Shown: piece by piece, positions 4,776 to 56,160 of the stretch
How positions within the stretch are numbered: the first letter of the stretch is position 1
How the letters are laid out: each line of letters begins with the position of its first letter
DNA from: Candidatus Sungiibacteriota bacterium
GTDB taxonomy: Bacteria > Patescibacteriota > Minisyncoccia > Sungbacterales > SURF-37
Length of the DNA: 64,000 nt
Assembly (NCBI GenBank): GCA_016186145.1
Contig: JACPMF010000004.1
Span: forward strand, 345 to 64,344
Direction: 5' to 3'
Notes under the pieces: generated by a model
The model's database searches: none
What the model saw: only the letters and a program-made list of their open reading frames with translations
What the model was told of the DNA's origin: nothing
Position numbers and translations under genes: made by a program

Positions 4776-5873
4776 ATGACAAAAGACAGCGACCAGAAAA
4801 AATTTCTCAATGCCCTGCTTTCAATTCCTGGAGTCGGGTACGATACGATCCAAAAAATAAAAGAGCGATTCCACTCTTATGAGAAAGCGTGGAATGCGTC
4901 CGGAGGAAAACTGACGAGCGCGGCAGTCGATGAAAAAACGGCCGACGCCATTGAGCGCGGAAAGAAAACAATCAATCCGGACCAAGAAATGCTGCGGCTT
5001 GAGAAAACAAAGATTATCCTTTTAGAAAAAGATGATCCCGCTTTCCCGAAAATCCTCCGGGAAATACCGTCGCCTCCGCTTTGGCTCTATAAAAAAGGGG
5101 CTGTTCCGGAAGATGAAGAAATGGTCGCAATTGTCGGCAGTAGAAAAGCAACATCATATGGAAAAGAAGCAACGGGAAAAATTATCTCCGGGCTTGCGGC
5201 AAAAACGTCGGTGGCCGTCATAAGCGGCCTTGCAATAGGAATTGACGGAGAAGCGCACCGCGCCGCAATCAAACACGGCCTTCGCACCATTGCCGTTATC
5301 GGCACGGGGCTTGATGAGAACTCGTTTTTTCCGCCTCAGCACTTAACGCTTGCGCGTGAAATTGTAGAACGGGGCGGAGCAATACTTTCCGAATATCCGC
5401 TTGGCATGCCGGCCCTCAAACAAAACTTTGTACAAAGAAACCGGCTCATCGCCGGACTTGCAAAAGGGACGCTCGTAATCGAGGCGGCTGAAAAATCGGG
5501 GGCCCTCATTACCGCTCGTTTTGCCCTTGAACAGGGAAAATCGGTGATGGCGGTTCCCGGATCGATCTTCTCTCCGTATTCAATCGGAACGAATTCTCTT
5601 ATTCGGGAAGGAGCCCGCGTCGTTATCTCGGCCGATGACGTAATAGACGAGTTGAATCTCGAAACCAAGGCCGAAGACATCCGGACAAACAATAAAAACC
5701 GGTTGACAGATGATAAAGAAAAGACTATTTATGAAAGCTTGGACAGGCCGCTAAAACTCGACGAACTTATTGAAAAACTCAATTTTCCCCTTTCCGATAT
5801 TATTTCCGGTCTTTCAATGCTAGAATTGAAAGGAATGGTCAAGAACGTCGGCGGAGAGTGGATCAGAATGTGA
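4776..5873 (+). CDS. dprA: DNA processing protein DprA (Smf)
   Basis: Rossmann-like DprA core (GSRKATSYG...AVISGLAIGIDGEAHRAA...) plus a C-terminal winged helix. Confidence 0.85.
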   Translation: MTKDSDQKKFLNALLSIPGVGYDTIQKIKERFHSYEKAWNASGGKLTSAAVDEKTADAIERGKKTINPDQEMLRLEKTKIILLEKDDPAFPKILREIPSPPLWLYKKGAVPEDEEMVAIVGSRKATSYGKEATGKIISGLAAKTSVAVISGLAIGIDGEAHRAAIKHGLRTIAVIGTGLDENSFFPPQHLTLAREIVERGGAILSEYPLGMPALKQNFVQRNRLIAGLAKGTLVIEAAEKSGALITARFALEQGKSVMAVPGSIFSPYSIGTNSLIREGARVVISADDVIDELNLETKAEDIRTNNKNRLTDDKEKTIYESLDRPLKLDELIEKLNFPLSDIISGLSMLELKGMVKNVGGEWIRM

Positions 5874-5931
5874 GCGCAAAATCAAAACACAAAAATTAAA
5901 CACAAAAATTTTACATTTTTGAATTTATTTT

Positions 5932-8169
5932 ATGAAGCTCCTCATTGTCGAATCTCCCGCTAAAGCAAAAACTATTTCAAAATATCTGCATGGAGAATAT
6001 ACCGTCCGCGCAAGCATCGGGCATATTCGAGATTTACCAAAATCAAACAAAAAAGCCATAGACGTAGCCGCCGGTTTTATTCCCCACTACGAAATTGTAA
6101 AAGGAAAAGAGCGGGTCGTGGACGAGCTTTCCTCTCTTTCGAAGGAAGCCGATGAGATAGTACTGGCAACCGACCCTGATCGCGAAGGAGAGGCCATCGC
6201 GTGGCATGTAGCCCAGGCTCTTGGCCTTGAAAACTCTAAGCCCGCCCCTCAGGTCCCGAACCCCGGGTCGAGGAAAACCCCAAACCCCAAACCGAAAGTG
6301 GAGCGAGTTGTTTTCAACGAAATAACCCAACGAGCTGTTCAAGAAGCAATGACCCATCCGCGTTCAATAGATATGAAGCTCGTTAGCGCCCAACAAGCGC
6401 GCAGAGTTCTCGATCGCCTCTTCGGGTACGACCTCTCCGGCCTCATATGGAAAAAAGTCCGTTACGGTCTTTCTGCGGGCCGGGTGCAATCGCCCGCACT
6501 TCGCATTATTGTCGAGCGCGAACGGGAAATCCGCGCCTTCGTACCGGAAGACTACTGGGTCATCTCCGGACAGTTCCAAACACCCCGGAAAGAAATTCTT
6601 GTTCTCATGTGCGCCGAAGAACCGAAAACCGAGAAAGAGGCCCTGCGCATAGTCAGCGCCGCAAAAGAAGGCTCATGGCATATTATTTCCGTGACGGAAA
6701 CAGAAACGAAACGCTCACCGCGACCGCCCTTTATAACCTCAACTCTCCAACAGACCGCAAGTTCTCGTTTTGGGTTCTCTCCTTCATACACCATGTCAAT
6801 TGCGCAAAAGCTCTATGAACAAGGGCATATCAGCTATATGCGGACCGACAGCCCGATTTTAAGCCAGGACGCCCTACCCGCGATTTACGCCGAAATTGAA
6901 AAAGCATATGGCGCCAACTTTCTTTTGCCGAGAACCTACACCGCAAAGTCAAAAACGGCCCAGGAGGCGCATGAAGCAATCAGGCCGAGCAATATAAAAG
7001 CAAAAACAGCAGGGTCGACTCCCGAACAAAAAAAACTTTATGCGCTCATTCGCGAACGAACTCTCGCCTCACAGATGGCGGACGCAAAAATTCTTCGAAC
7101 AAAAATATCAGCCAACATCGCCGAATCCAAAGAATCAATACCGGATTTTTCGATAAACGGCAGTATCATGGCTTTTCCGGGATGGCTGCAGGCCGACCAA
7201 ACAGCCAAAGGCGAGGAACTTGAACTTCCGAAATTGAAGGAGGGTGACCCGCTTATACTGCAAGACATCGCGAGTGAAGCAAAAAAAACAGAACCGCCGG
7301 CGCGTTATACAGAGGCCGGACTCGTAAAAGAACTTGAACGGCGAGAAATCGGGCGCCCTTCAACCTACGCAACGATATTAAAAACCCTTCAGGACCGCGG
7401 CTATGTAGAAAAATTGGGCAGGGCGTTAAAACCAACGGACACCGGCGAGGTGGTAAGCACGTTCCTCGAAGAAAATTTTTCTTCTTATATCAGCGACTCT
7501 TTCACGGCGGAAATGGAAAATGACTTGGACGAAATTGCCGACGGTAAACGAGAGTACGCCAAAACCCTGCGTGATTTTTACGGCCCGTTCACGAAGGAGG
7601 TTAAATCAAAAGAGAAAATAGCAAAGCTCACAAACCTCGGAGAAGCTCCGAAAGAATTCCCCTGCCCGGTCTGCGGGAGCCCTATGATAATAAAACTTTC
7701 CCGGACCGGAAAATTCTTGAGCTGCAGCCGCTTCCCAAAGTGTCATGGCGCAAGGAAAATAGATGGCACGGTGCTCGAAGCGCCGAAAGAAACCGGCGAG
7801 ATGTGCCCTGAATGCACGGAAGGCAAACTGATTGAACGCGAAGGACGTTTCGGAAAATTCATCTCTTGCAGCAACTATCCAAAATGCAAATACATTAAAA
7901 AGAGCGCCGAGGAAGAGGCGCGGGCAAAAACCGGAGTCCAATGCCCGAAGTGCAAAGACGGTGAAATCGTTGAACGAAGGGGCCGCTTTGGACCGTTTTT
8001 CAGCTGTTCAAATTATCCAAAATGCGACTTCGCCATAAAAGCGCGGCCAACCGGAACCGTTTGTCCGCTTTGCAGTTCGCTCATGATGGAAGGAACCAAA
8101 ACAATTCCTGAAAGATGTAGCAGCAAAAATTGTCCGAATCACAATCCACACTTGGCTCAAAAAACTTAG
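5932..8169 (+). CDS. topA: DNA topoisomerase I
   Basis: TOPRIM N-terminus (MKLLIVESPAKAKTISKYL...TDPDREGEAIAWH), catalytic core, and multiple C-terminal C4 zinc ribbons (CPVCGSP, CPECTEG, CPKCKDG, CPLCSS). Confidence 0.9.
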   Translation: MKLLIVESPAKAKTISKYLHGEYTVRASIGHIRDLPKSNKKAIDVAAGFIPHYEIVKGKERVVDELSSLSKEADEIVLATDPDREGEAIAWHVAQALGLENSKPAPQVPNPGSRKTPNPKPKVERVVFNEITQRAVQEAMTHPRSIDMKLVSAQQARRVLDRLFGYDLSGLIWKKVRYGLSAGRVQSPALRIIVEREREIRAFVPEDYWVISGQFQTPRKEILVLMCAEEPKTEKEALRIVSAAKEGSWHIISVTETETKRSPRPPFITSTLQQTASSRFGFSPSYTMSIAQKLYEQGHISYMRTDSPILSQDALPAIYAEIEKAYGANFLLPRTYTAKSKTAQEAHEAIRPSNIKAKTAGSTPEQKKLYALIRERTLASQMADAKILRTKISANIAESKESIPDFSINGSIMAFPGWLQADQTAKGEELELPKLKEGDPLILQDIASEAKKTEPPARYTEAGLVKELERREIGRPSTYATILKTLQDRGYVEKLGRALKPTDTGEVVSTFLEENFSSYISDSFTAEMENDLDEIADGKREYAKTLRDFYGPFTKEVKSKEKIAKLTNLGEAPKEFPCPVCGSPMIIKLSRTGKFLSCSRFPKCHGARKIDGTVLEAPKETGEMCPECTEGKLIEREGRFGKFISCSNYPKCKYIKKSAEEEARAKTGVQCPKCKDGEIVERRGRFGPFFSCSNYPKCDFAIKARPTGTVCPLCSSLMMEGTKTIPERCSSKNCPNHNPHLAQKT

Positions 8170-13407: not shown

Positions 13408-13491
13408 GGGCATGTGGCGGAACTGGTTTACGCGCACGACTCAAAATCGTGTGGCCTCACGGCCGTGTGGGTTCGACTCCCACCATGCCCA
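13408..13491 (+). tRNA. tRNA-Leu (anticodon CAA)
   Basis: Hand-folded class II tRNA: acceptor GGGCATG/CATGCCC, anticodon loop CTCAAAA, long variable arm, T-arm GTGGG-TTCGACT-CCCAC; 84 nt. Confidence 0.8.
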
Positions 13492-14200
13492 TTTTGTACC
13501 CAAAACGAAACTAACATTTAAAGAATTCGAATGGACGCCGCAACTTGCTTATGTTGTAGGACTTTTAGTAACCGACGGTAATTTATCTAGTGACGGTCGA
13601 CATATAATAATGCGCTCGTCAGATGTAGAATTGTTGAACACTTTCAAAAATTGCCTTAATATCAATAACAGAATTGGAAGAACACAAAACGGCAAAACGA
13701 TTTCTTATAGAGTACAATTCGGAAGTATACAATTTTACAACTGGCTGAAGAAGATAGGACTATTCCCCGCAAAAAGTTACACGATCGGTGAAATAGATAT
13801 TCCAGATAAATTTTTTAGAGATTATCTTCGTGGATGTATAGACGGCGATGGCAATATTTGTACGTACAAAGATTTATATAACGTATATAAAGGAAGAAAA
13901 TACGTCACTCAGCGACTATTTATAAAAATTGTGTCTGCAAGTAAAAAACATATCGTTTGGCTTCGGAATAAAATTACTGCCCTTAACGGCAGTAACGGAG
14001 CAATAATTAAAGACAGCCCGGCAGATAAACAACGGGTTCCAATGTGGATACTGAAATTTGCCAAAAAGGAATCACTACGGCTTCTCAGTTGGATTTACTA
14101 TCAACCAGACATCCCTTGCCTTGAACGTAAACATATGACAGCTGTGTATGCCATCGAAGAGATTAGCAAACAAAAACGGCGTGTATATTCTAGAATATAA
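13492..14200 (+). CDS. LAGLIDADG homing endonuclease (double-motif), free-standing; start codon uncertain
   Basis: Motif 1 LAYVVGLLVTDGNL and motif 2 YLRGCIDGDGNI. The reading frame is open back into tRNA-Leu and there is no canonical start between the tRNA end and motif 1. Confidence 0.65.
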
Positions 14201-14260
14201 ACACTTGAAGGCAACCTCGTGAGAGTTCAACTCTCTCCCGCGGCATTACGAACCTACTTA

Positions 14261-14290
14261 AACCCCGGCAAAGGCCGGGGTTTAAAATTT
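14261..14290 (+). terminator. rho-independent terminator after the homing-endonuclease gene
   Basis: aaccccggcaaaggccggggtttaaaattt. Confidence 0.6.
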
Positions 14291-14587
14291 ACCCTTTTAA
14301 ACAGGTTTTGGGCAAACGCAATAAAATAATGGGCGCGTCTGGATTCGAACCAGAGTTCCCGGGTGTAGAACTGCGCAGCCGCTTCGCGGCTTGCTCGTTA
14401 CACCCGCGAAAAGTCACCGCACCATCCCGAACAAATTGAGGTTAGGGTGCGCGATCCCGTACTTCCGCGATACTGACTCTGTACCATTACGGGTCAGCAG
14501 TTCGGGAGATGCGGGATCTGCGCCAACTTCTCGCTCCCTCTGGTCGCGGAAGTTGCGGGACTATTTAAACGCTTTTCGCCCTTCTCA

Positions 14588-14706
14588 ATTCATCCCGTTG
14601 GATTTTATAAAAATGGGCACTGCAGGGATCGGACCTGCGGCCTTCACAATGTCAATGTGACGCTCTACCACTGAGCTAAGTGCCCTAGAAAATCTAACGG
14701 GATGTC
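14588..14706. repeat. 16-bp inverted repeat (CATCCCGTTgGATTTT / AAAATCTAACGGGATG) bracketing tRNA-Val; ends resemble the MITE terminal inverted repeats
   Basis: Left 14588-14603 and right 14691-14706; 15/16 matches; the left end is preceded by ATTCAT. Confidence 0.6.
14614..14685 (-). tRNA. tRNA-Val (anticodon GAC)
   Basis: GGGCACTTAGCTCAGTGGTAGAGCGTCACATTGACATTGTGAAGGCCGCAGGTCCGATCCCTGCAGTGCCCA; cloverleaf folds, but the T-loop is TCCGATC (C at position 55, unusual). Confidence 0.75.
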
Positions 14707-14865
14707 AACGAGACGCTCTAACCGGCCTCGGCTACGCGCCCTTAAAACGAATCGGACGATGCTGAACGACGTTAGAACCTACTTTCAGGGTATCAAAAAC
14801 TACGAAATGTTTCCAGATTTCAGCAGGATTTCAAAATAAAATCGGCTCTTTATGGAAGCCGATCT

Positions 14866-15456
14866 CTAACTTTCTGCTTTGGTAAGCAGTAATTGATAAG
14901 TTTCGCGACGATTGTCGTCGACTTTTCGGGGCAGGAACGGCAAGGCTTTTTCGTAAGTTTGTGCCAGGCTGCCATTTGCGTTCGAATACATCCGATCAAA
15001 TCTTTGGATAATCTCATGTGCAACGCTTTGAATAAGCGGCATCCGTGAAGAACGGTATCTGCTTCCGAATTTTGATGTCCACGCAGGCCCCTGCGTGTTT
15101 CTGATATTTTCCTTGAGTTTCGGGAAATCAGTTTCTCCCTCCATATTGATAAGGAGCGGTGCTTGTTCGTAGCAAAATGGCATTGAGGGTTGCCATCTGG
15201 CTTCCACGACATTTTCATGCACTAAAAGTTTAACTGAAGGGGAAAGATATACCAATCTCGTGCCTGCTTTTCCGCCTTGGGCAAAAGCGAAGCGACAACC
15301 TTCAATTTCACGGATCCTTTTTGGGTGCATGATATTCCTTCCATGGCAGCCAGTAAGCCCGAAGCTGCCAAATTCCCAAAATGGATCACGTCGCGTATCG
15401 TTCGGATCATTCAACCGCGGCCTTCTCAGGTGGATAAGTATGACCTTGTCTTTCAC
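14866..15456 (-). CDS. hypothetical protein
   Basis: 196-aa ORF (the longer of two overlapping frames); no recognisable motif. Confidence 0.4.
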   Translation of the reverse strand: MKDKVILIHLRRPRLNDPNDTRRDPFWEFGSFGLTGCHGRNIMHPKRIREIEGCRFAFAQGGKAGTRLVYLSPSVKLLVHENVVEARWQPSMPFCYEQAPLLINMEGETDFPKLKENIRNTQGPAWTSKFGSRYRSSRMPLIQSVAHEIIQRFDRMYSNANGSLAQTYEKALPFLPRKVDDNRRETYQLLLTKAES

Positions 15457-15609
15457 TTAAACCTCCACAATCACAATAAAGACCTGCCCGGATTCTATGG
15501 TGGACAGAGAGCGATTGTCAATATCACACACCCTGCCGCGTCATTCCTATTTCTGGATAGATTCTCTCACCTCTCTCACAAAAAACAGCCCCATAAAATA
15601 AGGCTGCTT

Positions 15610-15849
15610 TTATGACAAAAAATGTCTTTTCAAGAACGCCCTGCCGGAGCCTGATTTTAGATATTTTTCGAAATTGAAAGCAACATATTTATTTTGAAAA
15701 GCGAAATAAGAAATTAATTTGATCGGCAATCTATTTTTTGTGGCTGGAACTTGCGCTTTATTATGTCTTACGATTCTGTCTTTTAGATCAGAAGTACATC
15801 CAATATAAAATCTTCTATCACAACATTCTAAAATATAGACATAGTTCAT
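15610..15849 (-). CDS. GIY-YIG nuclease superfamily protein (small, UPF0213-like)
   Basis: YVYILECCDRRFYIGCTSDLKDRIVRHN matches the GIY-YIG core; terminator hairpin downstream. Confidence 0.7.
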   Translation of the reverse strand: MNYVYILECCDRRFYIGCTSDLKDRIVRHNKAQVPATKNRLPIKLISYFAFQNKYVAFNFEKYLKSGSGRAFLKRHFLS

Positions 15850-16239: not shown

Positions 16240-16479
16240 TTATCTAGTTCTTTTCAGGAGTTTTAAAAACTCTTTTACTGAAAATTTTGCTTGCTTCAAA
16301 ATTTCATTCAATAACCACCGGGGTATATCAGCATTGTGATAAGGAATCGTGGTTTGGCGAGTTACATCACGAAAGTGTTGCAAACGAATATGACTTCCGC
16401 CCTGTCTTACAATTTTAAATCCCGCCTTAAGCAGGACACGAAGCAACGCTCTTGAGCTTATCATCGGCAAAATGCTCAT
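16240..16479 (-). CDS. hicA: HicA-family toxin (mRNA interferase)
   Basis: 79 aa; GFKIVRQGGSHIRLQH motif; overlaps hicB by 4 bp. Confidence 0.7.
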   Translation of the reverse strand: MSILPMISSRALLRVLLKAGFKIVRQGGSHIRLQHFRDVTRQTTIPYHNADIPRWLLNEILKQAKFSVKEFLKLLKRTR

Positions 16480-16754
16480 GGAACTGGCGCAAACAACCTT
16501 GATTTTGGCAGTCTGCCTACCGCCTTTCTCGTTTCATCAACAACGATTTTTCCATCTTCTATCACGCAGTCGCAATAAATTTCTATAGCGTCCTTGGCCA
16601 TTTTTTTTGCTTCAGTAAGCGTTTTTCCAAACGTTGCTACTTCGGGAAGAGAAATTCCCTTCACAAGGTAAACTCCTTCTTTAGCATCACGCCAAATAAG
16701 CACCTTGTAAGTACCATTTCGCGTCTGGATGGTAAATTCCCTTTTATTTTTCAT
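16476..16754 (-). CDS. hicB: HicB-family antitoxin
   Basis: 92 aa, UPF0150-like N-terminal domain (YKVLIWRDAKEGVYLVKGISLPEVATFGKTLTEAKKMAKDAIE). Confidence 0.65.
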   Translation of the reverse strand: MKNKREFTIQTRNGTYKVLIWRDAKEGVYLVKGISLPEVATFGKTLTEAKKMAKDAIEIYCDCVIEDGKIVVDETRKAVGRLPKSRLFAPVP

Positions 16755-37544: not shown

Positions 37545-38420
37545 CTAATTCTTGAGCCTCGAATTCAGGACTTCTTTAAGGGTAATCCCATCTTTGCTTT
37601 TCCATTCCAGTGGGCCAGAAGCAGATCTTCCTAATATGACACCACATGCTGCACTTGAGCTATCAAATACATAATCGTCAGTAAAGACAAGGGTGGTACC
37701 CTGGACACTTAATCGTTGCATTGCCACAAGTTCATCCTTGAGTTTTTTATACGGATGAGTCTGAAAAGACGGCGTTTCTTCTAATGAGGCCGTAGAAGAT
37801 TTCAAAACTTTCATTTTTCCGTCTTCTAAGAGATGGCCCGTAGCTATGATATTGGATCCTTTTTTGCAGATAAAAACCAAAGGGGTAACAGGTGTTTTCC
37901 CAGAAGTAAATTCACTTTGCACAAATATATCGTATCCGAGCAGAGGCATAATTGTTGCTAGGTTTTCATAAAACACCTCTAATCCACTTACATCTTCTTT
38001 TGGGATCGTAGGCACGCCAGGATTGTTAGCATTTTTTAGGTTACACTTCCCGATTTTCTTGAGACGTTCAATACAAACACTTTCGAGGTATTGAATTCCT
38101 GTTTTTGTTAATGATCCATCTTGACTTACAAAAACAACAACATCCTGCCACCAATCTTTTTTATAATCGTGATCTCTAATTCTTTCCTTGAAACCATCAG
38201 CTTCACCAACGTACACATTGAGCAATCCACCTTCATCAGAGCTACCAATGAGAAAGTAAACGCAAGCTCCACTTTCTATTTCAGGCAACGTAATGATTTC
38301 ATTTAAAGCGTTACGAGGGCCACAAATGGCTTTGCCACTCCACTGATCAATCCTCACTTCCCTTACTCCCTTCGGAAGTCCTGCTGCCAAAAAAATTGTG
38401 ATCTTCTTACCTTGATTCAT
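37545..38420 (-). CDS. GIY-YIG nuclease domain protein with a C-terminal DUF4357-like domain
   Basis: CVYFLIGSSDEGGLLNVYVGEADGFKERIRDH (GIY-YIG-like); overlaps the methyltransferase stop by 14 bp. Confidence 0.55.
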   Translation of the reverse strand: MNQGKKITIFLAAGLPKGVREVRIDQWSGKAICGPRNALNEIITLPEIESGACVYFLIGSSDEGGLLNVYVGEADGFKERIRDHDYKKDWWQDVVVFVSQDGSLTKTGIQYLESVCIERLKKIGKCNLKNANNPGVPTIPKEDVSGLEVFYENLATIMPLLGYDIFVQSEFTSGKTPVTPLVFICKKGSNIIATGHLLEDGKMKVLKSSTASLEETPSFQTHPYKKLKDELVAMQRLSVQGTTLVFTDDYVFDSSSAACGVILGRSASGPLEWKSKDGITLKEVLNSRLKN

Positions 38421-39603
38421 AAGTTTTTTTCGGTTTTAGAAGCAGCACTAGTTCTTCCGACTTTACTCTAGATTTCTTCTCGCGGTTATGTTTATTAAAC
38501 TTATTATTGCCACCTAAGGTACTGAATCTGCCAATCACATGCTTGTGAATGCGGCTTTTATTTTTATCCAGATTAAAATATTTTTTAGCCAATTCAATAA
38601 CCTTATCTCCAGACAATCCATTGCTAGATTTTCCTTTAGGAAAGGTAAAAATAACTTTAACCTTCTTTCTCGACAGGCCGGATAAGAGTTGCTCTAAAGC
38701 TTTATATGATTGTCCCGCATTACTAAATTCTGATTGTGGACGCTCAGATATATCCGGATAACGTCCAATACCGGTAACTTCTCCGCAGTAACCACGTGCA
38801 ATTGTTTCAAGTACATGATAAAAACGACTATATTGGACACCGGAATAGGGCGGATCAAGAAGAACCAAATCTCCTCTTTTTAATTTAGGTATTAATTTTT
38901 TAGCGTCTGAAACCATCGCCCTACCTTTTACTTTCGCGTGTAGAGGGACGAGTTCTTTTAACGCGCTATCGCAGGATTTAAAAATATCAGTGCGCCATGC
39001 AATTTCAATAAATTTTCCGGCCCCGGCAGTTGGCTGAAAAGGTTGGGCGGTATGTCCAGGAGCAGCAGCAGCCCTAGAAGCAGCAATTATGGTTGCTGCT
39101 AAGCAAATATCTCTGTATTTAGTTTGCTTAGGTAATGTATTTAAAAGATAGTCGATGGTAATGGCTTGTTTCGGACTAAAATAATGGCCTCCGTAAGCAC
39201 GCCAAACGGGACCAATCTTAGAGGGAGTTTTGCAAAGTTTCCTTGCCGCATTAACTCTCAACTTTATTTTTCCGGAATACTTTTGATCTACTCCATTGGC
39301 TTTATTTAGAAGCTTCGAAGTATTTAGTTTCTTTTTTGCTTTCTCTATCCAAGCTCTCTTTAAATATTCCGCATCGAATACCTTAGTGCGTCCAATTACG
39401 GCTCTTGCGAGAACAACAGCGTATTTTTGCAGATCACCTGCAATAATTTCGCCTTTAAAATTCAGATTTTTAGCAACAAAATTTATTACTCCTCCGGAAC
39501 CGCAAAATGGGTCAATGAATCTATTGGCATACGGAAGCTGCTCACGGAGTAAGTCTCCGAGACCATTGCTCAACATAAACCTTTTTGAACCCATGTATTT
39601 CAT
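38407..39603 (-). CDS. DNA N6-adenine methyltransferase, Dam-like (D12 class)
   Basis: Motif I FIDPFCGSGGV and motif IV LLDPPYSG; N-terminus KYMGSKRF as in Dam; ATGA overlap with the upstream gene. Confidence 0.85.
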   Translation of the reverse strand: MKYMGSKRFMLSNGLGDLLREQLPYANRFIDPFCGSGGVINFVAKNLNFKGEIIAGDLQKYAVVLARAVIGRTKVFDAEYLKRAWIEKAKKKLNTSKLLNKANGVDQKYSGKIKLRVNAARKLCKTPSKIGPVWRAYGGHYFSPKQAITIDYLLNTLPKQTKYRDICLAATIIAASRAAAAPGHTAQPFQPTAGAGKFIEIAWRTDIFKSCDSALKELVPLHAKVKGRAMVSDAKKLIPKLKRGDLVLLDPPYSGVQYSRFYHVLETIARGYCGEVTGIGRYPDISERPQSEFSNAGQSYKALEQLLSGLSRKKVKVIFTFPKGKSSNGLSGDKVIELAKKYFNLDKNKSRIHKHVIGRFSTLGGNNKFNKHNREKKSRVKSEELVLLLKPKKTYESR

Positions 39604-40940
39604 AGGCAAAGTTGCGAAAGAGCTATTCTTTCGCATCCCGATAGCGCCAACAGCTCTGTTGCGAAATTTGAACGCCATTGGTAGTGATTGTTTACAGAAG
39701 AAGAACTACTGCTCATACTTGCCAGCGCTTCTTCCACTTCAATCCACATATCAGAGATGGGATTTACTTGCCCGGGCTCCCATAGTCCATAATTTTCTCC
39801 TAATGTTTCCCACCAAAATTTTATGTCGTTTCTTGAGATACGAGCGTTTTCAATCATAGTCATCCCTGCTCCTGTTGCTAACCTTAAAAGTAGAGTCGCC
39901 CTGCTCAACATCTGAATATGATAATCAGGATCAGTCGTTTTCCCCTTTTTACTTGCTTCGACAATCAACATAGGATCTCTTTGCTGTGTTTTTCGACTAA
40001 AAATCTGAGTTAGGGTGGTTAGTTCAGGATCACTTATGCCAAGATCTGTAAGTATTTTTCTAATCTGAGATTGCGAGAGTTGCCCGTTATTATATTTTTC
40101 CCAGCTCAATCTTAATAAAAAGGTATCTGCGACAAAACCACCAGTTCCATTCATGCTACACATGCGCCATATATTTTCTACTATCCCCAAAGAATTCCTG
40201 ATCTGAATAGAATTCCTAAAACTAAGGTCGTTCAAAATACCGCTTGGTCTATAGCTTGCGTGTTCACGTGCAGATTGATCTATTCCCAATGTTGTTATGT
40301 CGTACCCCCAATGTTTAAGCCAATCTTTTGCTAAATAATTGAGTGGCGCTGTTGAGATCTCAGAAAACCAAGTTTCTAAAGTTATACTATTAGGCCGAAT
40401 AATTTTTTGAAATAGTCTTCCAGAATCAGGGCGACCGAGCCAATCAATAAATTGCTTTCTTACTAGTGCGTGGGTTTTTTCTGAAATCGGCCCGTAAATA
40501 TCTGAAGACTTTCCATTAGCACCCACTATTGAAAAATGTTTTGCACTGAAAACACCTATGCCATCACTTGCAAGTAAAGACATCACAGCTCTCAGTTGGG
40601 CATAATATGCAAAATGCTTACAAGCCTGGATGTCGCCAACGGCATGACTAATTATAGCTTTACCCAAGAAACTCCAACCATCCACGCAGTGTAAGGGAAC
40701 TGAAGCGGCTATGTACTCTGCTAATTGAGTTTTTTTAGGTCCCGTTATTCGGTGAGGTGCTCTTCTGGGACAATCCTTTTCTATTTTTTCCGTACAGTTT
40801 TTTGCATATCTATTTTGAACACCAAGCCAGCCACCCCTTACAAAGTGTCTTTTAAGACGATTAAAGGTTTCTTGGGTAGCTATCCGAGAATAATGTCTAG
40901 TTGAAAATTTATCTGGCATTCTTGGCATCTTCTTTAGCAA
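39600..40940 (-). CDS. hypothetical protein (446 aa) inside the defence cassette
   Basis: No recognisable motif; translationally coupled between the DGQHR and methyltransferase genes. Confidence 0.5.
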   Translation of the reverse strand: MLKKMPRMPDKFSTRHYSRIATQETFNRLKRHFVRGGWLGVQNRYAKNCTEKIEKDCPRRAPHRITGPKKTQLAEYIAASVPLHCVDGWSFLGKAIISHAVGDIQACKHFAYYAQLRAVMSLLASDGIGVFSAKHFSIVGANGKSSDIYGPISEKTHALVRKQFIDWLGRPDSGRLFQKIIRPNSITLETWFSEISTAPLNYLAKDWLKHWGYDITTLGIDQSAREHASYRPSGILNDLSFRNSIQIRNSLGIVENIWRMCSMNGTGGFVADTFLLRLSWEKYNNGQLSQSQIRKILTDLGISDPELTTLTQIFSRKTQQRDPMLIVEASKKGKTTDPDYHIQMLSRATLLLRLATGAGMTMIENARISRNDIKFWWETLGENYGLWEPGQVNPISDMWIEVEEALASMSSSSSSVNNHYQWRSNFATELLALSGCERIALSQLCL

Positions 40941-42444
40941 ATCCTAAAATCTTATATGTTTCTCTGGCAAGACTGCCAAAATCTTTACTAATAAAAAGGT
41001 GTTTTAACAGTTGACGCCTAAATTGTTTATAACCACTACCTCCTCGATAGGAAAGTTTAAGAACAAGATCATCTTCGCTTAATCCTTTCGCCGCTGAAGA
41101 TCTCCAATCAAATTTAGACAATTCTTTGGCAAGTTTAAATACAAAATCAGCAAGTATTTTTTTCTTCTTTAAATCTTTAAGTTCCGATGCTGAGCTCGAC
41201 TCCGCGTTCGGATTCCACTCTTGTAATCTCAACTTTTCTCGATTGATAAATAGTAGATCATTTGTAACATTTAAAACCACAGAAATTCCTTGGTCATTGT
41301 TAAGCATTGTGTAAGGACCAACAAACGCAGGATCTCCGCTGACTGCCTTTTTATATTCTTGTTTCTTGGCATCGCGCAACTCAAGAGCCCACTTTGCCTT
41401 AGATTTTCTAACAGCGTCCCTTAATTCGTTCCAGAGATAAATAAGCAGGGCCGCTTGTTGGCTTTTATTCCAAGGAATTGCAATTTTATCCTGACCAACC
41501 GGTGCTCCAAATAGTCCGCCGATAGATATGCCTCTACCCTCAAATGACTTAACGTATGTTTTTAATAAAGCTCTTACCCAAGCTGCTTGAGTAACAGAGG
41601 GACCACCACTTTCCCCAAGCATGTTGATTCTATCGTACCAAGCACTATCCTTTTCTGACCATAGTATCTCAACTAGCTCTTGTGCTCGAGTTTCTCGGTA
41701 AACCTTATGGCCTTCAAATCTCTCAAGCCAATCTTCTGTCCGAAGTAAGGGGTACAGATCAAAAGCAAGGCTTGGGTTAATTCTTTTGGGCTTAATATTG
41801 ATTGTCCAAAAAAGATACGCTTGCCAACTTATATCAAGACCGTAAAATGCAACAACTGGAAGTTCATAATCTTCAGCAATACTTTTATCCTCAAACGCTA
41901 ACAGTCGGTGTTGCCCATCAATAATCTCAATGGGAAGTCTCTGTTTGGCCTGCCAGGTATTTGAATTATTAAAAGAAGCTGGCAACTGAACCTCGGCTAT
42001 GTTTCCTGCTAAATCCCTTACAGTCACTAGATCGTTCGGATCAACCCTTTCTCCATCACGCGTATCTTTGGCAGCTAAAATATTTACAACGATAGCTGTA
42101 GGTAACCAGCCTGGCTTTTGTAAATCATCAAACCTTTTCTCCTTACGTTGGGAATCAGTCAAATCTGACCAGGGATATCCGTATTTTATGTATTTCGCAA
42201 TTTTTTCTGATCGTGACGGTTCGTGAGCTCGTTGTAAACCGGTCCGCGACGCTAGACTCCTGCGATAGACACCTGAGAGTACCTGAAGTTGACGGGCGGA
42301 AAGTGAAAAAACGTAAAAATGATTTTGAGGCTCTCTACGATGCTCATTATTACTCCACTGAACAGAATCCCAGCCTTTAAGCCATTGGTTCACTTTTAAG
42401 GCCTGTATCTTATTTGGTTTGCGAGGCTGGGACTTCTTTTTCAT
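40909..42444 (-). CDS. DGQHR-domain protein (DndB-like, ParB-like nuclease superfamily)
   Basis: Exact IIDGQHRLLAF motif; 511 aa. Confidence 0.8.
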   Translation of the reverse strand: MKKKSQPRKPNKIQALKVNQWLKGWDSVQWSNNEHRREPQNHFYVFSLSARQLQVLSGVYRRSLASRTGLQRAHEPSRSEKIAKYIKYGYPWSDLTDSQRKEKRFDDLQKPGWLPTAIVVNILAAKDTRDGERVDPNDLVTVRDLAGNIAEVQLPASFNNSNTWQAKQRLPIEIIDGQHRLLAFEDKSIAEDYELPVVAFYGLDISWQAYLFWTINIKPKRINPSLAFDLYPLLRTEDWLERFEGHKVYRETRAQELVEILWSEKDSAWYDRINMLGESGGPSVTQAAWVRALLKTYVKSFEGRGISIGGLFGAPVGQDKIAIPWNKSQQAALLIYLWNELRDAVRKSKAKWALELRDAKKQEYKKAVSGDPAFVGPYTMLNNDQGISVVLNVTNDLLFINREKLRLQEWNPNAESSSASELKDLKKKKILADFVFKLAKELSKFDWRSSAAKGLSEDDLVLKLSYRGGSGYKQFRRQLLKHLFISKDFGSLARETYKILGFAKEDAKNAR

Positions 42445-44464: not shown

Positions 44465-44480
44465 GAGCCGTAATTATCTG

Positions 44481-44552
44481 ACGCCCTCGAAGGGAATCGG
44501 ACCCCCATCTGCCCCTTAGGACGGGGCCGTTCTATCCATTGAACTACGAGGG
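44481..44552 (-). tRNA. tRNA-Arg (anticodon CCU)
   Basis: GCCCTCGTAGTTCAATGGATAGAACGGCCCCGTCCTAAGGGGCAGATGGGGGTCCGATTCCCTTCGAGGGCG; T-arm has G-U pairs and an unusual TCCGATT loop. Confidence 0.6.
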
Positions 44553-44679
44553 CAATGAATGGTTATTATCATAATAATATAGCGCATTGTTTCCCTTTTT
44601 TCCACACTTTCGGTATAATATAATTCGTTACCGAAATTTCCTAAATAAACTAAAAACTATAAACTAATATCTATTTTTT

Positions 44680-47787: not shown

Positions 47788-49845
47788 ATGGAAATCCGAG
47801 ACAACGAACGACTCGCCTTCCACATTGGCGAAGTCGTGCGTGGAAGCAGAAAGTTTGAAAATGCTGCCACAAGCGTATCGCGGATGATTTTGGGACGAGG
47901 AGTAAAGAAAAGCACAAGAGCCGGGCAGACTACATTTGAGTTCGGCTTCTTCCGTGGAGGCCGCAAGCACGTTGTCGGCTGGTTCGATGAGATCAACGAC
48001 CTCGTTAACTTCGTGAAGGATGCCGCCGAAGGCGGGTCCTCGCAGGAAATGGCATTCGTGCTCGTTGGCGAACCCGGCAACGGAAAAACCTTCTTTGTTG
48101 AAAGCCTCTGCTCCGCGTACCGACAGTTCATTGCGCAACCGGAAAACAGAAGGTACACGTTCGAATTCGTCGGCTTGGAAGAACTGGGGCGCTACGGAAA
48201 TATTGGGGTCATCCAATCCCAAACCTTTGAAGACCCGCTCGTCTTGGCCATGAACCTTGGCGTGTCAAAAGATCAGAACAAGGAACGCCTGGCAAAGACG
48301 GGATTCGAAGACCACGACATCGACCGGCTCTATGGAGACTATCGCCCGCTTGGGGCATGCACGGAATTCATCTGGAACGATATTCTCACCCACTGCGACG
48401 GCGATGTGGAACGGGCGCTCGGATTCGTACGGATTGTGCCCGTACCGATCGCCGAAAGCCTGGGAACCGTTACCGGCAAATACTCGGCTCGCGACAAAAT
48501 CACTTCTTCCGCAACCGACCTCCTCGGAGAAGAAGACCTGTCGCGTCTTTTGAACCTTAAGGATACGTCCAATCCCTATAAGTACAACATCCGGAGGGGC
48601 GCGATCGCGCGTGTCGCCGGTGGCGGCATTCACTTTTCAGACGAGCTTTTCAAGAACAAAAAAGACCTTGTTCAGATTTACCTTCAGGTTATTCAGAACC
48701 GAACGATCGAACTCGACGGGTACCGCTGGCCCATTGATACGCTCATCATCGCAACCAGCAACAACTGGGAATACAACCGCTTTACCGGCGAACGAGAAGA
48801 GGCTCCGATCAAAGACCGCTGCCGCATTTGCTACGTTTCCCACAACACCGACTACAGGCTTCAACAAGTGCTGAACCGGTACGCGATCGGAAGCGAAAAG
48901 AAAGTCACCGTAACCGGCGAGGGGCTCCATGAGGATCCTAACCTTGTGTACGCCCTTTCGGTCGCCGTAACACTGACTCGTCTTCCGCATAGCGACAAGC
49001 TCACCCCGATTGAAATGATGAAGCTTGAAGCCGGAGAAACTGCCGGAGAGAAAAATGTCAAGACGCTGGCTGAAATAAAGGGAATGCTGAATGCCAACCC
49101 TGACGTTACAAAGCGTTGGGGGCAAAAAGGAATCGGACACCGCGGCCTCGGAAGAGTCGTCCAGATCATGCTTGCTATGCCGGAGACGCACGAAGGCAAA
49201 TGCCTTTTTGCGAAAGACTGCTTTGAGGCCGCTGAAAGAGAAATTCTTGACTATATCCCCGATGCGGTCGACCGCGAAAAATTCATGAAGGACCTGAAGG
49301 TTGCCCGGAAACTCTACCGAGGCGAGATCAAGACCTCGATCTTCAACGCTTATCGCGACGACCCGGAAGCCATCCGCAAGGATGTCATCGCCTATGTCAA
49401 CATGATCATCGGTATGGACTCCGACCAGCTGGGTCCGGACAAGATTTGGCGGTATCGTGATCCGCAAACCGGCGAGATGAAGGCGATCAAGGTTGAAGAA
49501 CGCTTCATCGACAGCGTTGAAAGCCGTCTCGGCCTTTCAACGAGAGAACGGAAAGAAACGTTCCGCACGTCCATCCGGAAGATTTACGGCCAGAAGGTTT
49601 CTACGGAACCGAACTACGACTTTATGGATAACGAGGCGCTCGTGAAAGCCGTAACCGACGTCCGCCTCGAATCCGACGTCGCCGGAGCCGCGAGTCTCGT
49701 CGGAGCGCTCGCAAACCGCGCGAATGAAGAAAACGTGCGCATCTACAACAGGATGATTGAAACCATGCTCAACAAGCTGAACTACTGCAGGACATGCGCG
49801 CAAAAAACCATTGAGTACTTCTGCGAAAAAACGGATGAGGACTAA
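47788..49845 (+). CDS. prkA: PrkA-family serine protein kinase (YeaG-like), paralog 1
   Basis: Walker A LVGEPGNGKT, 685 aa; collinear with YeaG (GGIHFSDE...IIATSN); strong Shine-Dalgarno AAGGAGG. Confidence 0.85.
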   Translation: MEIRDNERLAFHIGEVVRGSRKFENAATSVSRMILGRGVKKSTRAGQTTFEFGFFRGGRKHVVGWFDEINDLVNFVKDAAEGGSSQEMAFVLVGEPGNGKTFFVESLCSAYRQFIAQPENRRYTFEFVGLEELGRYGNIGVIQSQTFEDPLVLAMNLGVSKDQNKERLAKTGFEDHDIDRLYGDYRPLGACTEFIWNDILTHCDGDVERALGFVRIVPVPIAESLGTVTGKYSARDKITSSATDLLGEEDLSRLLNLKDTSNPYKYNIRRGAIARVAGGGIHFSDELFKNKKDLVQIYLQVIQNRTIELDGYRWPIDTLIIATSNNWEYNRFTGEREEAPIKDRCRICYVSHNTDYRLQQVLNRYAIGSEKKVTVTGEGLHEDPNLVYALSVAVTLTRLPHSDKLTPIEMMKLEAGETAGEKNVKTLAEIKGMLNANPDVTKRWGQKGIGHRGLGRVVQIMLAMPETHEGKCLFAKDCFEAAEREILDYIPDAVDREKFMKDLKVARKLYRGEIKTSIFNAYRDDPEAIRKDVIAYVNMIIGMDSDQLGPDKIWRYRDPQTGEMKAIKVEERFIDSVESRLGLSTRERKETFRTSIRKIYGQKVSTEPNYDFMDNEALVKAVTDVRLESDVAGAASLVGALANRANEENVRIYNRMIETMLNKLNYCRTCAQKTIEYFCEKTDED

Positions 49846-49930
49846 AAACTGAAACATGGTGTCCCTCTCTCTAGAGAGGGACTTATTTCCAAGGAAGTAT
49901 TTAAAAGCTATCTTAAAAATCATTTTTTCC

Positions 49931-50027
49931 GCGTTTTTCCGCGTAGCATTCCGCACTTATCCGCGGAGTCTCCGCGGAAGTGTGCAGATTGCAACGCAGA
50001 TTTATGCGGAAATTGAATTTTGAGATG
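49931..50027. repeat. about 95-bp inverted repeat, left arm, flanking the yeaH-like gene
   Basis: About 88% identical to the reverse complement of 51638-51728; contains the palindrome ccgcggagtctccgcgg. Confidence 0.7.
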
Positions 50028-50099
50028 AATTCTAGAATGAAATGCTTCTTAGGAAATGAGTAAAATCAATCTTTAAAATCTCTTTTTTCCGCATCTATA

Positions 50100-50212
50100 A
50101 TGCGAAACACGCTGATGATTTATGCGAATAAGACTAACTGTTCGCATAATTCGCATCATGTATTCGCATCGTTCGCATTGTAATGACACGGAAATTGAAA
50201 TTTGGGATGCTT
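50100..50212 (+). promoter_or_regulatory. array of TTCGCAT heptamers (2 inverted plus 4 direct) and a third partial copy of the repeat end, upstream of the yeaH-like gene
   Basis: aatgcgaaac, tatgcgaataag, then gttcgcataattcgcatcatgtattcgcatcgttcgcattg, then acggaaattgaaatttgggatg. Confidence 0.5.
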
Positions 50213-50268
50213 ACTCAGAGCACTTTTAAAATTTAAATTCCACACGACGAAAAGGGGGGAAGACCGCA

Positions 50269-51630: not shown

Positions 51631-51637
51631 ACCTAAT

Positions 51638-51728
51638 CTCAAATTCAATTTCCGTGTAAATCCGCGTTGCAATCTGCGTGTTTCCGCGGAGACTCCGCGG
51701 ATCAATGCGGAATGCTACGCGGAAAAAC
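51638..51728. repeat. about 95-bp inverted repeat, right arm, flanking the yeaH-like gene
   Basis: See 49931-50027. Confidence 0.7.
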
Positions 51729-51829
51729 GCTGATATAGAACTTTTGAGATGGCTTCAAGAAGCCAAGGTTGAGCCGGGCCCCGACTCCGTCGGGGCTTTT
51801 CTATAACGGTTACAGAAAGAAAGGAGGAG

Positions 51830-53551: not shown

Positions 53552-53667
53552 TTTCTAAGACGCCGGCAATTCGTACGCGCGAAACCCGCAAGCGCGGGGC
53601 AGCGCATGCGAATTGCTGGCTTTTCTAAAAGACCGGCGGCCGTTAGTAAAACGAAAGGAGGAAAACC

Positions 53668-55915: not shown

Positions 55916-56160
55916 TTGGGTGCGCCTGGATTTGAACCATCAACCTAAAATAAAAATGGGTCAGGATGGACTCGGACCATCGATCCCCAAGGTACCGCGC
56001 CCGACTTCGCCTTGACGAATAAATTTTGCGAGCGCCTGGATTCGAACCAGGAACCCCGGAGGTATAAGCTCCGTGCTCTAACCGTTGAGCTACGCTCGCG
56101 TAGCGGCGAAGTCAAGGCGGGCGGGTAAGCTCGATGCTTTAGCCGCTAAGCTACTGACCC
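55916..56160 (-). pseudogene. tRNA-like half-fragments bracketing an intact tRNA-Ile(UAU): 5-prime half at 56101-56160, 3-prime half at 55957-56026, and an extra 3-prime fragment at 55916-55956
   Basis: 5-prime half GGGTCAGTAGCTTAGCGGCTAAAGCATCGAGCTTACCC... and 3-prime half ...GATGGTCCGAGTCCATCCTGACCCA have complementary acceptor strands. Their inner ends also base-pair with each other (GACTTCGCC with GGCGAAGTC, CGCCC with GGGCG). Fragment GGTTGATGGTTCAAATCCAGGCGCACCCA duplicates the tRNA-Ile 3-prime end. Confidence 0.45.
56027..56099 (-). tRNA. tRNA-Ile (anticodon UAU)
   Basis: GCGAGCGTAGCTCAACGGTTAGAGCACGGAGCTTATACCTCCGGGGTTCCTGGTTCGAATCCAGGCGCTCGCA; anticodon loop CTTATAC. Confidence 0.8.

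Follow-up and report, generated by a model that had tools for sequence, protein, structure and literature searches.

We describe here a complete valine transfer RNA (tRNA) gene, tRNA-Val(GAC), which lies within a second, interrupted tRNA-Val(GAC) gene on the minus strand of a 64-kb stretch of DNA (hereafter the window) from a contig of a Candidatus Sungbacteria metagenome-assembled genome (MAG; Patescibacteria, candidate phyla radiation, CPR). The window is chromosomal, as indicated by the housekeeping genes relA/spoT, parB, topA and gyrA, and the relatives of its ParB and FtsH are all Sungbacteria or Parcubacteria; FtsH itself has 100% identity with MBI2639504.1. We consider it probable that a non-autonomous element resembling a miniature inverted-repeat transposable element (MITE) broke the resident tRNA-Val(GAC) gene and supplies its replacement, the outer copy being a pseudogene. 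The observations that carry this reading are the anatomy of the locus, an uninterrupted ortholog in a relative, the match of the insert's ends to a family of repeats, damage to the stems of the outer gene and the recurrence of nesting at other loci and in other genomes. A preliminary description of this DNA had already proposed that a tRNA-carrying element interrupts a resident tRNA-Val gene at its anticodon loop, and both the uninterrupted ortholog and the repeat match support this proposal, with the function of the inner tRNA presumed. The literature searches brought to light no account of bacterial tRNA genes in which one tRNA lies nested within another.

Anatomy of the nested tRNA-Val locus

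The outer gene extends over 14741..14330 on the minus strand, a span of 412 nt including two insertions, and these limits replace the 14329-14747 given initially. Read in the 5' to 3' direction, the minus strand presents GGGCGCG, TA, GCCGAGGCCGGTTAGAGCG, TCTCG and TTGACAT, followed by a repeat arm, (CAT)CCCGTTAGATTTT, the trinucleotide CTA, the 72-nt inner tRNA-Val(GAC) and TTTTTAT; thereafter come the second repeat arm, AAAATCCAACGGGATG, a long structured stretch and finally TCTGG TTCGAAT CCAGA CGCGCCC A. Three colinear pieces of this sequence belong to the outer gene. The 5' piece (nt 1-38; 14702..14741) comprises the acceptor strand GGGCGCG, a damaged D arm, the 5' strand of the anticodon stem (TCTCG) and the full anticodon loop TTGACAT, and is identical at 36 of 40 positions to the corresponding gene of L001, the relative introduced below. 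The middle piece, TGAGAAGGGC (nt 39-48; 14578..14587), consists of the 3' strand of the anticodon stem, TGAGA, and the variable region, AGGGC, with nine of its ten positions the same as in L001 (TGAGAAGGTC). The 3' piece, TCTGGTTCGAATCCAGACGCGCCCA (nt 49-73; 14330..14354), contains the T arm TCTGG TTCGAAT CCAGA, the acceptor strand CGCGCCC and the discriminator A, and is identical to L001 at 24 of 25 positions. The 7-nt acceptor strands of the 5' and 3' pieces are fully complementary, in agreement with the preliminary description of a 5' half which ends at the anticodon loop and whose acceptor strand pairs with a 3' piece. The 419-nt stretch first flagged folds into a structure closed by this outer acceptor stem, with a minimum free energy (MFE) of -182 kcal/mol and z = -6.7.

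The nearest relative recovered for the locus is L001, an ENA metagenome contig whose ParB is 81% identical; L002, L003 and L010 are from the same organism. The gene order in L001, namely tRNA-Leu(UAG), a 196-aa open reading frame (ORF), tRNA-Thr, L33, tRNA-Trp, tRNA-Val, tRNA-Leu(CAA), parB and relA, is that of the window, and homology extends past the outer 3' piece into the downstream flank. Between tRNA-Trp and tRNA-Leu(CAA)/ParB, the syntenic tRNA-Val(GAC) gene is uninterrupted in L001 (GGGCGCGTAGCTCAGCCCGGTTAGAGCGTCTCATTGACATTGAGAAGGTCTCTGGTTCAAATCCAGACGCGCCCA), as it also is in L002, L003 and L010. In this comparison of orthologous loci, which the preliminary description had proposed, the three outer pieces (14741..14702, 14587..14578 and 14354..14330) match the L001 gene without gaps at 69 of 75 positions (92%), compared with an identity of only 74.7% for the inner tRNA. 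A check with covariance models and ARAGORN had likewise been proposed: the inner tRNA alone was reported by ARAGORN in its default mode and with its intron option and by Rfam at E<=10, and ARAGORN (default) called a tRNA-Val(GAC) from the outer pieces when both inserts were deleted in silico. Because the outer pieces are much closer to L001 than the inner tRNA is, and because they are called by ARAGORN once rejoined, they represent the resident gene and the inner tRNA is the newcomer. The comparison was made piecewise, since a whole-locus MAFFT alignment, global alignment being averse to long gaps, placed L001 onto the inner tRNA.

Three other assignments were tried at this locus and discarded. 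When run with overlaps allowed, ARAGORN returned 'tRNA-Arg(gcg) i(28,336)', which is a forced cloverleaf with a 4-nt D loop. Reading the 3' side either as CGGGA with a 2-nt variable loop or as a tRNA-Arg(UCU)-like 3' half starting from TTCTAC was dropped when the middle piece was recognized as outer nt 39-48. A transfer-messenger RNA (tmRNA) or two-piece tmRNA was also rejected: ARAGORN -m returned nothing and pair 3-70 is G-C, not G-U.

Insertion 1 is a cassette of 114 nt (14588..14701, minus strand) made up of CCCGTTAGATTTTCTA, the inner tRNA and TTTTTATAAAATCCAACGGGATGAAT, and is located exactly between nt 38 and 39 of the outer gene. It is absent from L001, L002 and L010, and its removal restores TTGACAT/TGAGA as found in L001, with no leftover base and no duplication. 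The inner tRNA-Val(GAC) (72 nt; 14614..14685, minus strand), whose completeness had been claimed from the start, is a full cloverleaf identified by both ARAGORN and Rfam (RF00005, 71.3 bits at 14685..14614) and is one of the eight tRNAs that these programs find in the window. All 21 of its stem pairs are intact and it is presumed to be a working gene. Both the inner and the outer tRNA are Val(GAC), their anticodon arms differing by a single base pair (2 nt); the outer gene remains split at 38/39 and no chimeric intact tRNA has been formed. Outside its tRNA the cassette amounts to 42 nt, all of it stem and linkers. Tyrosine integrase, phage or island genes and ORFs with a family match are all lacking from this insert, which holds the tRNA, linkers and repeats only.

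Insertion 2 (223 nt; 14355..14577, minus strand) lies between outer nt 48 and 49, where the variable region meets the T stem, and is likewise absent from L001. It is non-coding and strongly self-complementary. The preliminary description had envisaged a single insert with about 270 nt of structured sequence behind the inner tRNA, but there are two separate insertions, of 114 and 223 nt; 223 nt of the structured sequence (14577..14355) are indeed foreign, whereas its first 10 nt (14587..14578) are outer nt 39-48, so that it is not one block. The MFE of insertion 2 is -99.2 kcal/mol on the tRNA strand and -101.0 kcal/mol on the other, and just two of its 76 pairs on the tRNA strand are G-U. Because it folds equally on both strands with few G-U pairs, as do the MITE copies described below, this is the signature of a palindrome at the DNA level and not of a structure selected as RNA. 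Rfam searches of either strand at E<=10 gave nothing beyond noise, and the two families that appeared (IMES-2, 16 bits; skipping-rope, 13 bits) were rejected as such. No second copy was found in the window or the fetched loci, nor was any ORF with a family match. Insertion 2 is read as a later, unrelated insertion into a gene that had ceased to matter. We also note that its last 16 nt (TTCTACACCCGGGAAC, 14355-14370) and the outer T arm (14330-14354) together have the form of a canonical 41-nt tRNA 3' half beginning at U33, with anticodon UCU. These 16 nt agree at ten positions with the 3' side of a tRNA-Ile anticodon arm, a partner strand CGGGT is found 37 nt upstream and this end may be a remnant of the anticodon arm of another tRNA.

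In the outer tRNA-Val the D-stem pairs 12-23 and 13-22 are broken (GCTC to GCCG), with 19 of 21 pairs kept. By comparison, no cloverleaf pair is broken in 13 uninterrupted tRNAs from the window, L001 and two further relatives, L012 and L014 (the inner tRNAs of three nested pairs included), although orthologs diverge by up to 20% between genomes. When the one pair lost from the outer tRNA of a nested pair in L014 is added, three of 63 pairs are broken, versus none of about 285 in the uninterrupted tRNAs, which points to relaxed constraint, as expected of pseudogenes. From its sequence, a decaying pseudogene is the best reading of the outer tRNA-Val. The insertion is probably recent, since the acceptor and T arms of this gene are still perfect.

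The MITE-like repeat family and the proposed insertion

The resemblance of the 16-bp inverted repeat to MITE ends, noted in the preliminary description, is borne out. Its arms pair at 15 of 16 positions, and the related repeat ATTCATCCCGTTAGA has 14 matches in the window when as many as 3 mismatches are allowed, whereas chance alone would give 1.9. Together they make up five inward-facing pairs: the tRNA cassette itself (14588/14707), the ends of which match with 1 and 3 mismatches, and four ordinary copies (9986/10115, 35715/35862, 36359/36584 and 36579/36742), which are non-coding and 120-220 bp long. The family ends have the form ATTCAT/CCCGTTAGA...TCTAACGGG/ATTCAT, and ATTCAT flanks both sides of the four ordinary copies, apart from CTTCAT at the left end of copy 3. 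Three of the four directly abut the start codon of a gene, which reads ATGAAT or ATGAAG on the gene strand. Because these copies lie directly upstream of a gene start, the flanking ATTCAT (CTTCAT in copy 3) corresponds to the start codon and one further codon on the opposite strand. Copy 1 is missing from L001, where the empty site carries a single ATTCAT; it follows that the family was still moving after the divergence of these two lineages. Copies 3 and 4 are arranged in tandem and share the palindrome TCTAACGGG-ATTCAT-CCCGTTAGA intact between them; a 6-bp spacer separates its two inverted arms, and it resembles the core site of a recombinase. Separately, L001 has a different MITE-like insertion of its own at 2340-2470, just 3' of its tRNA-Val gene, with a perfect 12-bp repeat (CCCAGCCCTTTG/CAAAGGGCTGGG) and flanking (G)TAAA at either end; in the window this site is empty.

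The two ends of the cassette are related to the family in different ways. The right arm, AAAATCCAACGGGATG (14591..14606, minus strand), has 1 mismatch to the family consensus and together with the next AAT forms a canonical MITE end, ATTCATCCCGTTGGA on the plus strand at 14588-14602. The left arm, CATCCCGTTAGATTTT (14689..14704, minus strand), shares CATCCCGTTAGA with the family ends, and begins with three bases that also form nt 36-38 of the outer anticodon loop. The flanks, read on the tRNA strand, are unlike: to the left stands TGACAT, from the anticodon loop, and to the right the canonical ATGAAT. Since excision leaves no scar, ATGAAT is part of the element and the target was not duplicated: a target-site duplication, which would give equal flanks, is not seen, and nothing extra remains after removal. 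This pattern would fit site-specific or single-strand insertion better than cut-and-paste transposition with target duplication. Unlike flanks would be the expected trace of site-specific recombination between unlike crossover regions, but single-strand insertion at a near-cognate target, by analogy with IS200/IS605, would give the same flanks. The target, TCTCGT-TGACAT-TGAGA, is the anticodon arm, and the anticodon arm of tRNA genes is a classical recombinase target.

The following course of events is proposed for the tRNA-Val locus. An insertion enzyme, presumably of one of these two kinds, would have placed the 114-bp element with its foreign tRNA-Val(GAC) at the boundary of anticodon loop and stem, between nt 38 and 39, without target duplication and beside TGACAT, which is similar to the ATGAAT at the end of the element itself. 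Disruption of the resident gene would cost nothing, as the incoming element would supply a functional tRNA of identical anticodon, and the element would be hard to lose once the replacement is carried inside. The locus would be transcribed as one unit, from which RNase P and 3' processing would free the inner tRNA, which sits at the tip of the 16-bp stem, while the outer halves and insertion 2 would be discarded as leader and trailer. The inner gene would then be the sole active tRNA-Val(GAC). Under relaxed selection the outer gene would have lost two D-stem pairs and gained the second, 223-bp palindromic insertion. Gene conversion driven by a homing endonuclease, as with SegB of phage T4, may contribute to the spread of such units.

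Other nested pairs, surroundings and alternative readings

A second nested pair is found in the window at 55957..56160 on the minus strand. Its outer tRNA, with the acceptor GGGTCAG...CTGACCCA (GGGTCAG/CTGACCC), forms a flawless cloverleaf for which ARAGORN with overlaps reports an intron of 131 nt. The insert of approximately 130 nt lies in the anticodon loop, where a helix of 4+5+9 bp extends the anticodon stem, and contains a complete tRNA-Ile(UAU) at 56099..56027. As the junction can be placed only to within a few bases, UAU, UAC and UGU are all possible outer anticodons; A26, C32 and G44-G45 of the outer tRNA resemble Ile rather than Val genes. In L012, a 95% relative, the syntenic position downstream of ftsH is occupied by an uninterrupted tRNA-Ile(UAU) gene (2395-2467). 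The inner tRNA of the second pair (56027-56099) agrees with this gene at 56 of 57 positions across the body and is identical to it over nt 8-48; the two otherwise differ by compensatory swaps only, at acceptor pairs 2-71, 4-69 and 6-67 and at one pair of the T stem. Such swaps in the acceptor are odd given the 95% identity of FtsH and suggest recombination or selection on the acceptor stem. The pair is followed by a degenerate tRNA 3' fragment, GGTTGATGGTTCAAATCCAGGCGCACCCA (55945..55917), and then a terminator. U at tRNA position 55 (pseudouridine 55) is almost universal, but the T loop begins UCCGA, with C at this position, in the outer tRNA of the second pair (55957-56160) and also in the inner tRNA-Val(GAC) (14614-14685) and a tRNA-Arg(CCU) (44480-44554).

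The third nested pair was found in a 78% relative, L014 (GCA_964467395.1, CAYXQE010000003.1), at 5736-5958, at the same site downstream of ftsH. Its outer gene is an L012-type tRNA-Ile (85% when read as Ile) which has lost pair 31-39 and is interrupted at or near nt 38/39; ARAGORN labels it Arg(tct) i(38,148). The inner tRNA-Ile(UAU) (5799-5872) is 73% identical to that of L012 and is mounted on an 18-bp helix which extends its acceptor stem. This pair also carries an extra hairpin, TTATATC...GATATAA. Each of the three inserts ends in 4-6 nt which are similar to the 4-6 nt directly preceding it (preceding/ending: TGACAT/TGAAT, TACC/TACC and TCTAA/TATAA), a likeness of sequence which suggests that recombination may have taken place within the loop.

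Several observations weigh against the reading of a broken and replaced resident gene. In the second pair it is the inner tRNA which looks resident, being 89% identical to the L012 tRNA-Ile compared with 72% for the outer tRNA, and the outer cloverleaf is the flawless one noted above; this pair does not fit a simple account in which a foreign cassette enters a resident gene. The stems which bracket the three inner tRNAs have no sequence in common, and because these repeats share no sequence one element family cannot account for all three pairs; a repeat family behind the stems of the second and third pairs was not found in the available sequence. Outside the D stem the outer tRNA-Val pieces are well kept, with a perfect acceptor and T arm and an A31 to G change that still pairs with U39. 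ORF scans of the 64-kb window revealed no encoded recombinase or transposase, and no integrase or RNA ligase was found among the ORFs scanned. One comparison, with the single relative lineage recovered for the locus, that of L001, underlies both the proposed sequence of events and what is said of selection on the outer gene, and the evidence from the source genome is that contained in 64 kb of its sequence. Searches for further relatives added little. A scan of genome contigs with a T-arm/acceptor 25-mer gave as its sole match an unrelated Saccharibacteria tRNA-Val(UAC), and one of metagenome contigs with a D-arm/anticodon 24-mer returned the L001 organism again and nothing else. Viral contigs had no matches to the inner tRNA, the cassette ends or insertion 2, and a phage BLAST search gave generic tRNA matches only. 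Five relatives obtained through ParB (L004-L006, L008 and L009) have a different gene order with no tRNA-Val at that place, and exact look-ups of the window ParB and RelA retrieved no further relatives.

The locus is also an insertion hot spot, as three neighbouring features of the window are absent from L001. A LAGLIDADG endonuclease gene (13494-14200, plus strand) directly follows tRNA-Leu(CAA), 130 nt downstream of the tRNA-Val unit. A block at 14850-15849 (minus strand), between tRNA-Trp and tRNA-Val, consists of an ORF with a GIY-YIG domain (15610-15849, 79 aa) and a 196-aa ORF without a family match, and may be a split or defunct free-standing endonuclease gene. A hicA/hicB toxin-antitoxin pair (16240-16754, minus strand) is situated between tRNA-Thr and the L33 gene. 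Members of the LAGLIDADG family are common throughout Patescibacteria (656 matches), and in three Sungbacteria genomes a gene of this family stands immediately after tRNA-Leu(CAA) next to parB (13408-14245 in the window, 3910-4745 in L015 and 3870-4660 in L016). A displaced 3' fragment of a tRNA, comprising T arm and acceptor and ending CCGCGGCA, follows the LAGLIDADG gene in the window (14221-14245, GAGAGTTCAACTCTCTCCCGCGGCA) and in L015 (GGGAGTTCGACTCTCCCCCGCGGCA); none was seen after the gene in L016. L001 (2500-2545) is without the LAGLIDADG gene, yet has kept a displaced fragment, TTCGACTCCCTCCCTCGGTA. A perfect 12-bp hairpin, TTAAACCCCGGC/GCCGGGGTTTAA (14258..14285), separates the convergent tRNA-Val unit and LAGLIDADG gene and has a homologous counterpart at that place in L001. 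It is a probable two-way terminator, although the terminator scan did not call it. We therefore conclude that tRNA genes in this clade have repeatedly been struck by selfish DNA which brings a replacement for the damage. Elsewhere in the window, the regions 37545-42444 and 47788-55869 encode a DUF4357 protein, a D12-class adenine methyltransferase and a DndB-like protein, a probable DNA-modification or defence block; two PrkA-like kinase genes flank DUF444 and SpoVR-like genes in the same part of the window.

The nested units could also be viewed at the RNA level. A single transcript might yield both tRNAs, the inner one freed by RNase P and RNase Z (or by RNase III acting on the 16-bp stem) while the outer halves, kept in contact through the acceptor stem and long helix, would be trimmed and then joined again by an RNA ligase, in which case a nested tRNA would be a new bacterial intervening sequence. 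The three nested transcripts do fold as a cloverleaf on a long stem within a second acceptor/T-arm frame (z values of -6.7, -3.9 and -6.7), the outer cloverleaves at 56160..55957 and in L014 are intact or nearly so, the outer tRNA-Val is still recognized as a tRNA when its inserts are removed, and unusual tRNA introns missed by standard tools occur in Patescibacteria (PMC13011429). However, two separate excisions would be needed for the outer tRNA-Val, the D stem of which is broken, and the cassette stem is formed by the terminal repeats of a family of DNA elements and has a mismatch that is A-C on the RNA strand and G-U on the other. In at least two of the three pairs the inner tRNA has the outer, ancestral anticodon, which is expected for a replacement and needless for an intron. 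Inspection of the three pairs showed no bulge-helix-bulge at any junction: the tRNA-Val locus has a 4x3 internal loop and then the 16-bp helix, the second pair a 2x1 loop, a 4-bp helix and a 1-nt bulge, and L014 a 7-nt loop and a 4-bp helix. No ribozyme core was detected, no splicing endonuclease or ligase genes were present among the window ORFs scanned, and we know of no bacterial pathway that removes such inserts. Processing of this kind seems to us quite improbable as an explanation of the nested units, and maturation of the outer tRNA at the tRNA-Val locus is unlikely; for the two other pairs, with their better-kept outer cloverleaves, it is conceivable. Still less credence can be given to the idea that one or both inserts are highly diverged group I introns with the tRNA in a peripheral loop, even though the phylum has tRNA group I introns, some of them too diverged for RF00028 (PMC13011429), and U38 is the last base of the 5' exon. 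No RF00028 match was obtained in the window-wide gathering scan or with cmscan of 14200-14900 (701 nt, both strands) at E<=10. The omega-G is missing from both inserts, insertion 1 ending in ...ATGAAT (U) and insertion 2, which follows C48, in ...GGAAC (C). Besides its tRNA, insertion 1 has just 42 nt. Insertion 2 is not in the anticodon loop but at nt 48/49, and its fold is symmetrical between the strands. The intron or split-tRNA alternative in the preliminary description has thus gained no positive support from group I core, omega-G or bulge-helix-bulge.

Spread by homing would act on DNA and is compatible with the explanation that we favour. After a free-standing endonuclease had cut an uninterrupted tRNA gene, double-strand-break repair would copy in the nested allele, the interruption would shield the gene from re-cleavage and the inner tRNA would restore function. 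The endonuclease genes on either side of the locus, none of them present in L001, are suggestive in this respect, as are the LAGLIDADG homologs directly after tRNA-Leu(CAA) in L015 and L016, the displaced 3' fragments after the LAGLIDADG gene (window and L015) and after the second nested pair, and the precedent of T4 SegB, a GIY-YIG homing enzyme which acts in a tRNA gene cluster (PMC2330249). Against homing, the LAGLIDADG gene is tied to tRNA-Leu and not to tRNA-Val, the GIY-YIG ORF has only 79 aa and may be defunct, the inner copy may lack resistance to cleavage because its anticodon arm differs from the outer one by merely 2 nt, and the exact match of the cassette ends to the MITE family points to insertion borne by an element. 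We regard homing as a doubtful account of the locus, albeit one with some chance of being correct. An assembly artefact, such as a chimeric join of strain variants, is conceivable for a MAG contig but so improbable that it can be given almost no weight: the nesting is base-exact, there are two instances in the contig and a further one in L014 (GCA_964467395.1), which was assembled independently in another project, and the flanks of the locus are colinear with L001 on both sides.

If a broken resident gene with a carried replacement is the correct reading, a non-autonomous element of about 100 bp can become indispensable when it disrupts an essential tRNA gene for which it carries the substitute, a logic documented so far only for whole temperate phages. 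The tRNA genes of CPR bacteria would then turn over by insertion and replacement, leaving nested genes, 3' fragments and homing-endonuclease genes behind. There is a slim chance that the nested units constitute either a new class of intervening sequence, with both tRNAs matured, or a self-addicting module that replaces same-anticodon tRNA genes across Patescibacteria; were the outer tRNAs matured, a new bacterial RNA-processing pathway would be implied. On the practical side, standard tRNA finders give the inner gene only, and intron options can mislabel the outer gene, as ARAGORN did here with Arg(GCG) for the tRNA-Val locus and Thr(UGU) and Arg(UCU) for the other two pairs. Inventories of tRNAs and surveys of introns in such genomes can be distorted as a result.

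Comparison with known systems

Archaeal intron-containing and split tRNAs are processed at bulge-helix-bulge motifs, in which a 4-bp helix separates two 3-nt bulges. As in archaeal tRNA introns, a long helix flanking the interruption extends the anticodon stem of the nested pairs, but this motif is absent from their junctions, the host is bacterial and there is no sign of a splicing endonuclease among the ORFs scanned. MITEs and other non-autonomous elements with inverted repeats include remnants of integrative elements that keep only the end sites. The cassette is like these in sharing its terminal repeats with four other copies, in having no mobility genes and in the empty site of a relative; it differs from them in carrying a tRNA as cargo, in lacking a flank duplication and in its target, an anticodon loop that belongs to a tRNA gene of identical anticodon. 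Genomic islands are said, following Williams in 2002, to integrate into tRNA genes and displace a 3' fragment. Reminiscent of islands and of T4 SegB (PMC2330249) are the endonuclease genes which flank the locus and the displaced tRNA 3' fragments by tRNA-Leu(CAA) and the second nested pair, whereas classical islands rebuild the tRNA rather than nest a whole tRNA inside it.

The group I introns described in tRNA genes of Patescibacteria interrupt the anticodon-loop region, at positions from 33/34 to 36/37 (2026, PMC13011429; Williams 2020, doi 10.1101/2020.01.27.920355), and tRNA-Val is not among the 25 Patescibacteria cases listed in Table 1 of the former study. The nested pairs share with them the phylum, the interruption at the anticodon loop and an outer gene that is missed by standard finders. 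In contrast, the cassette is without a ribozyme core or omega-G, is inserted at 38/39 and is itself a tRNA.

The closest comparison is with the tRNA-dependent lysogeny of actinobacteriophages, in which the element integrates into a host tRNA gene without rebuilding it (Guerrero-Bustamante & Hatfull, 2024; PMC10865867). Here too the host gene is split and not rebuilt, and the inner tRNA has the same anticodon, Val(GAC) at the main locus and Ile(UAU) in L014. In the latter, where the outer gene is the ortholog of the L012 tRNA-Ile(UAU) and the inner tRNA is also Ile(UAU), there would be the same replacement of an isoacceptor as in tRNA-dependent lysogeny. The differences are those of scale and setting, since the cassette has 114 bp, MITE-like repeats and a place in a CPR chromosome and is devoid of integrase and phage genes, and of position, since its replacement tRNA sits inside the anticodon loop of the gene replaced. 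By analogy, then, the nested tRNA-Val locus resembles tRNA-dependent lysogeny in miniature.

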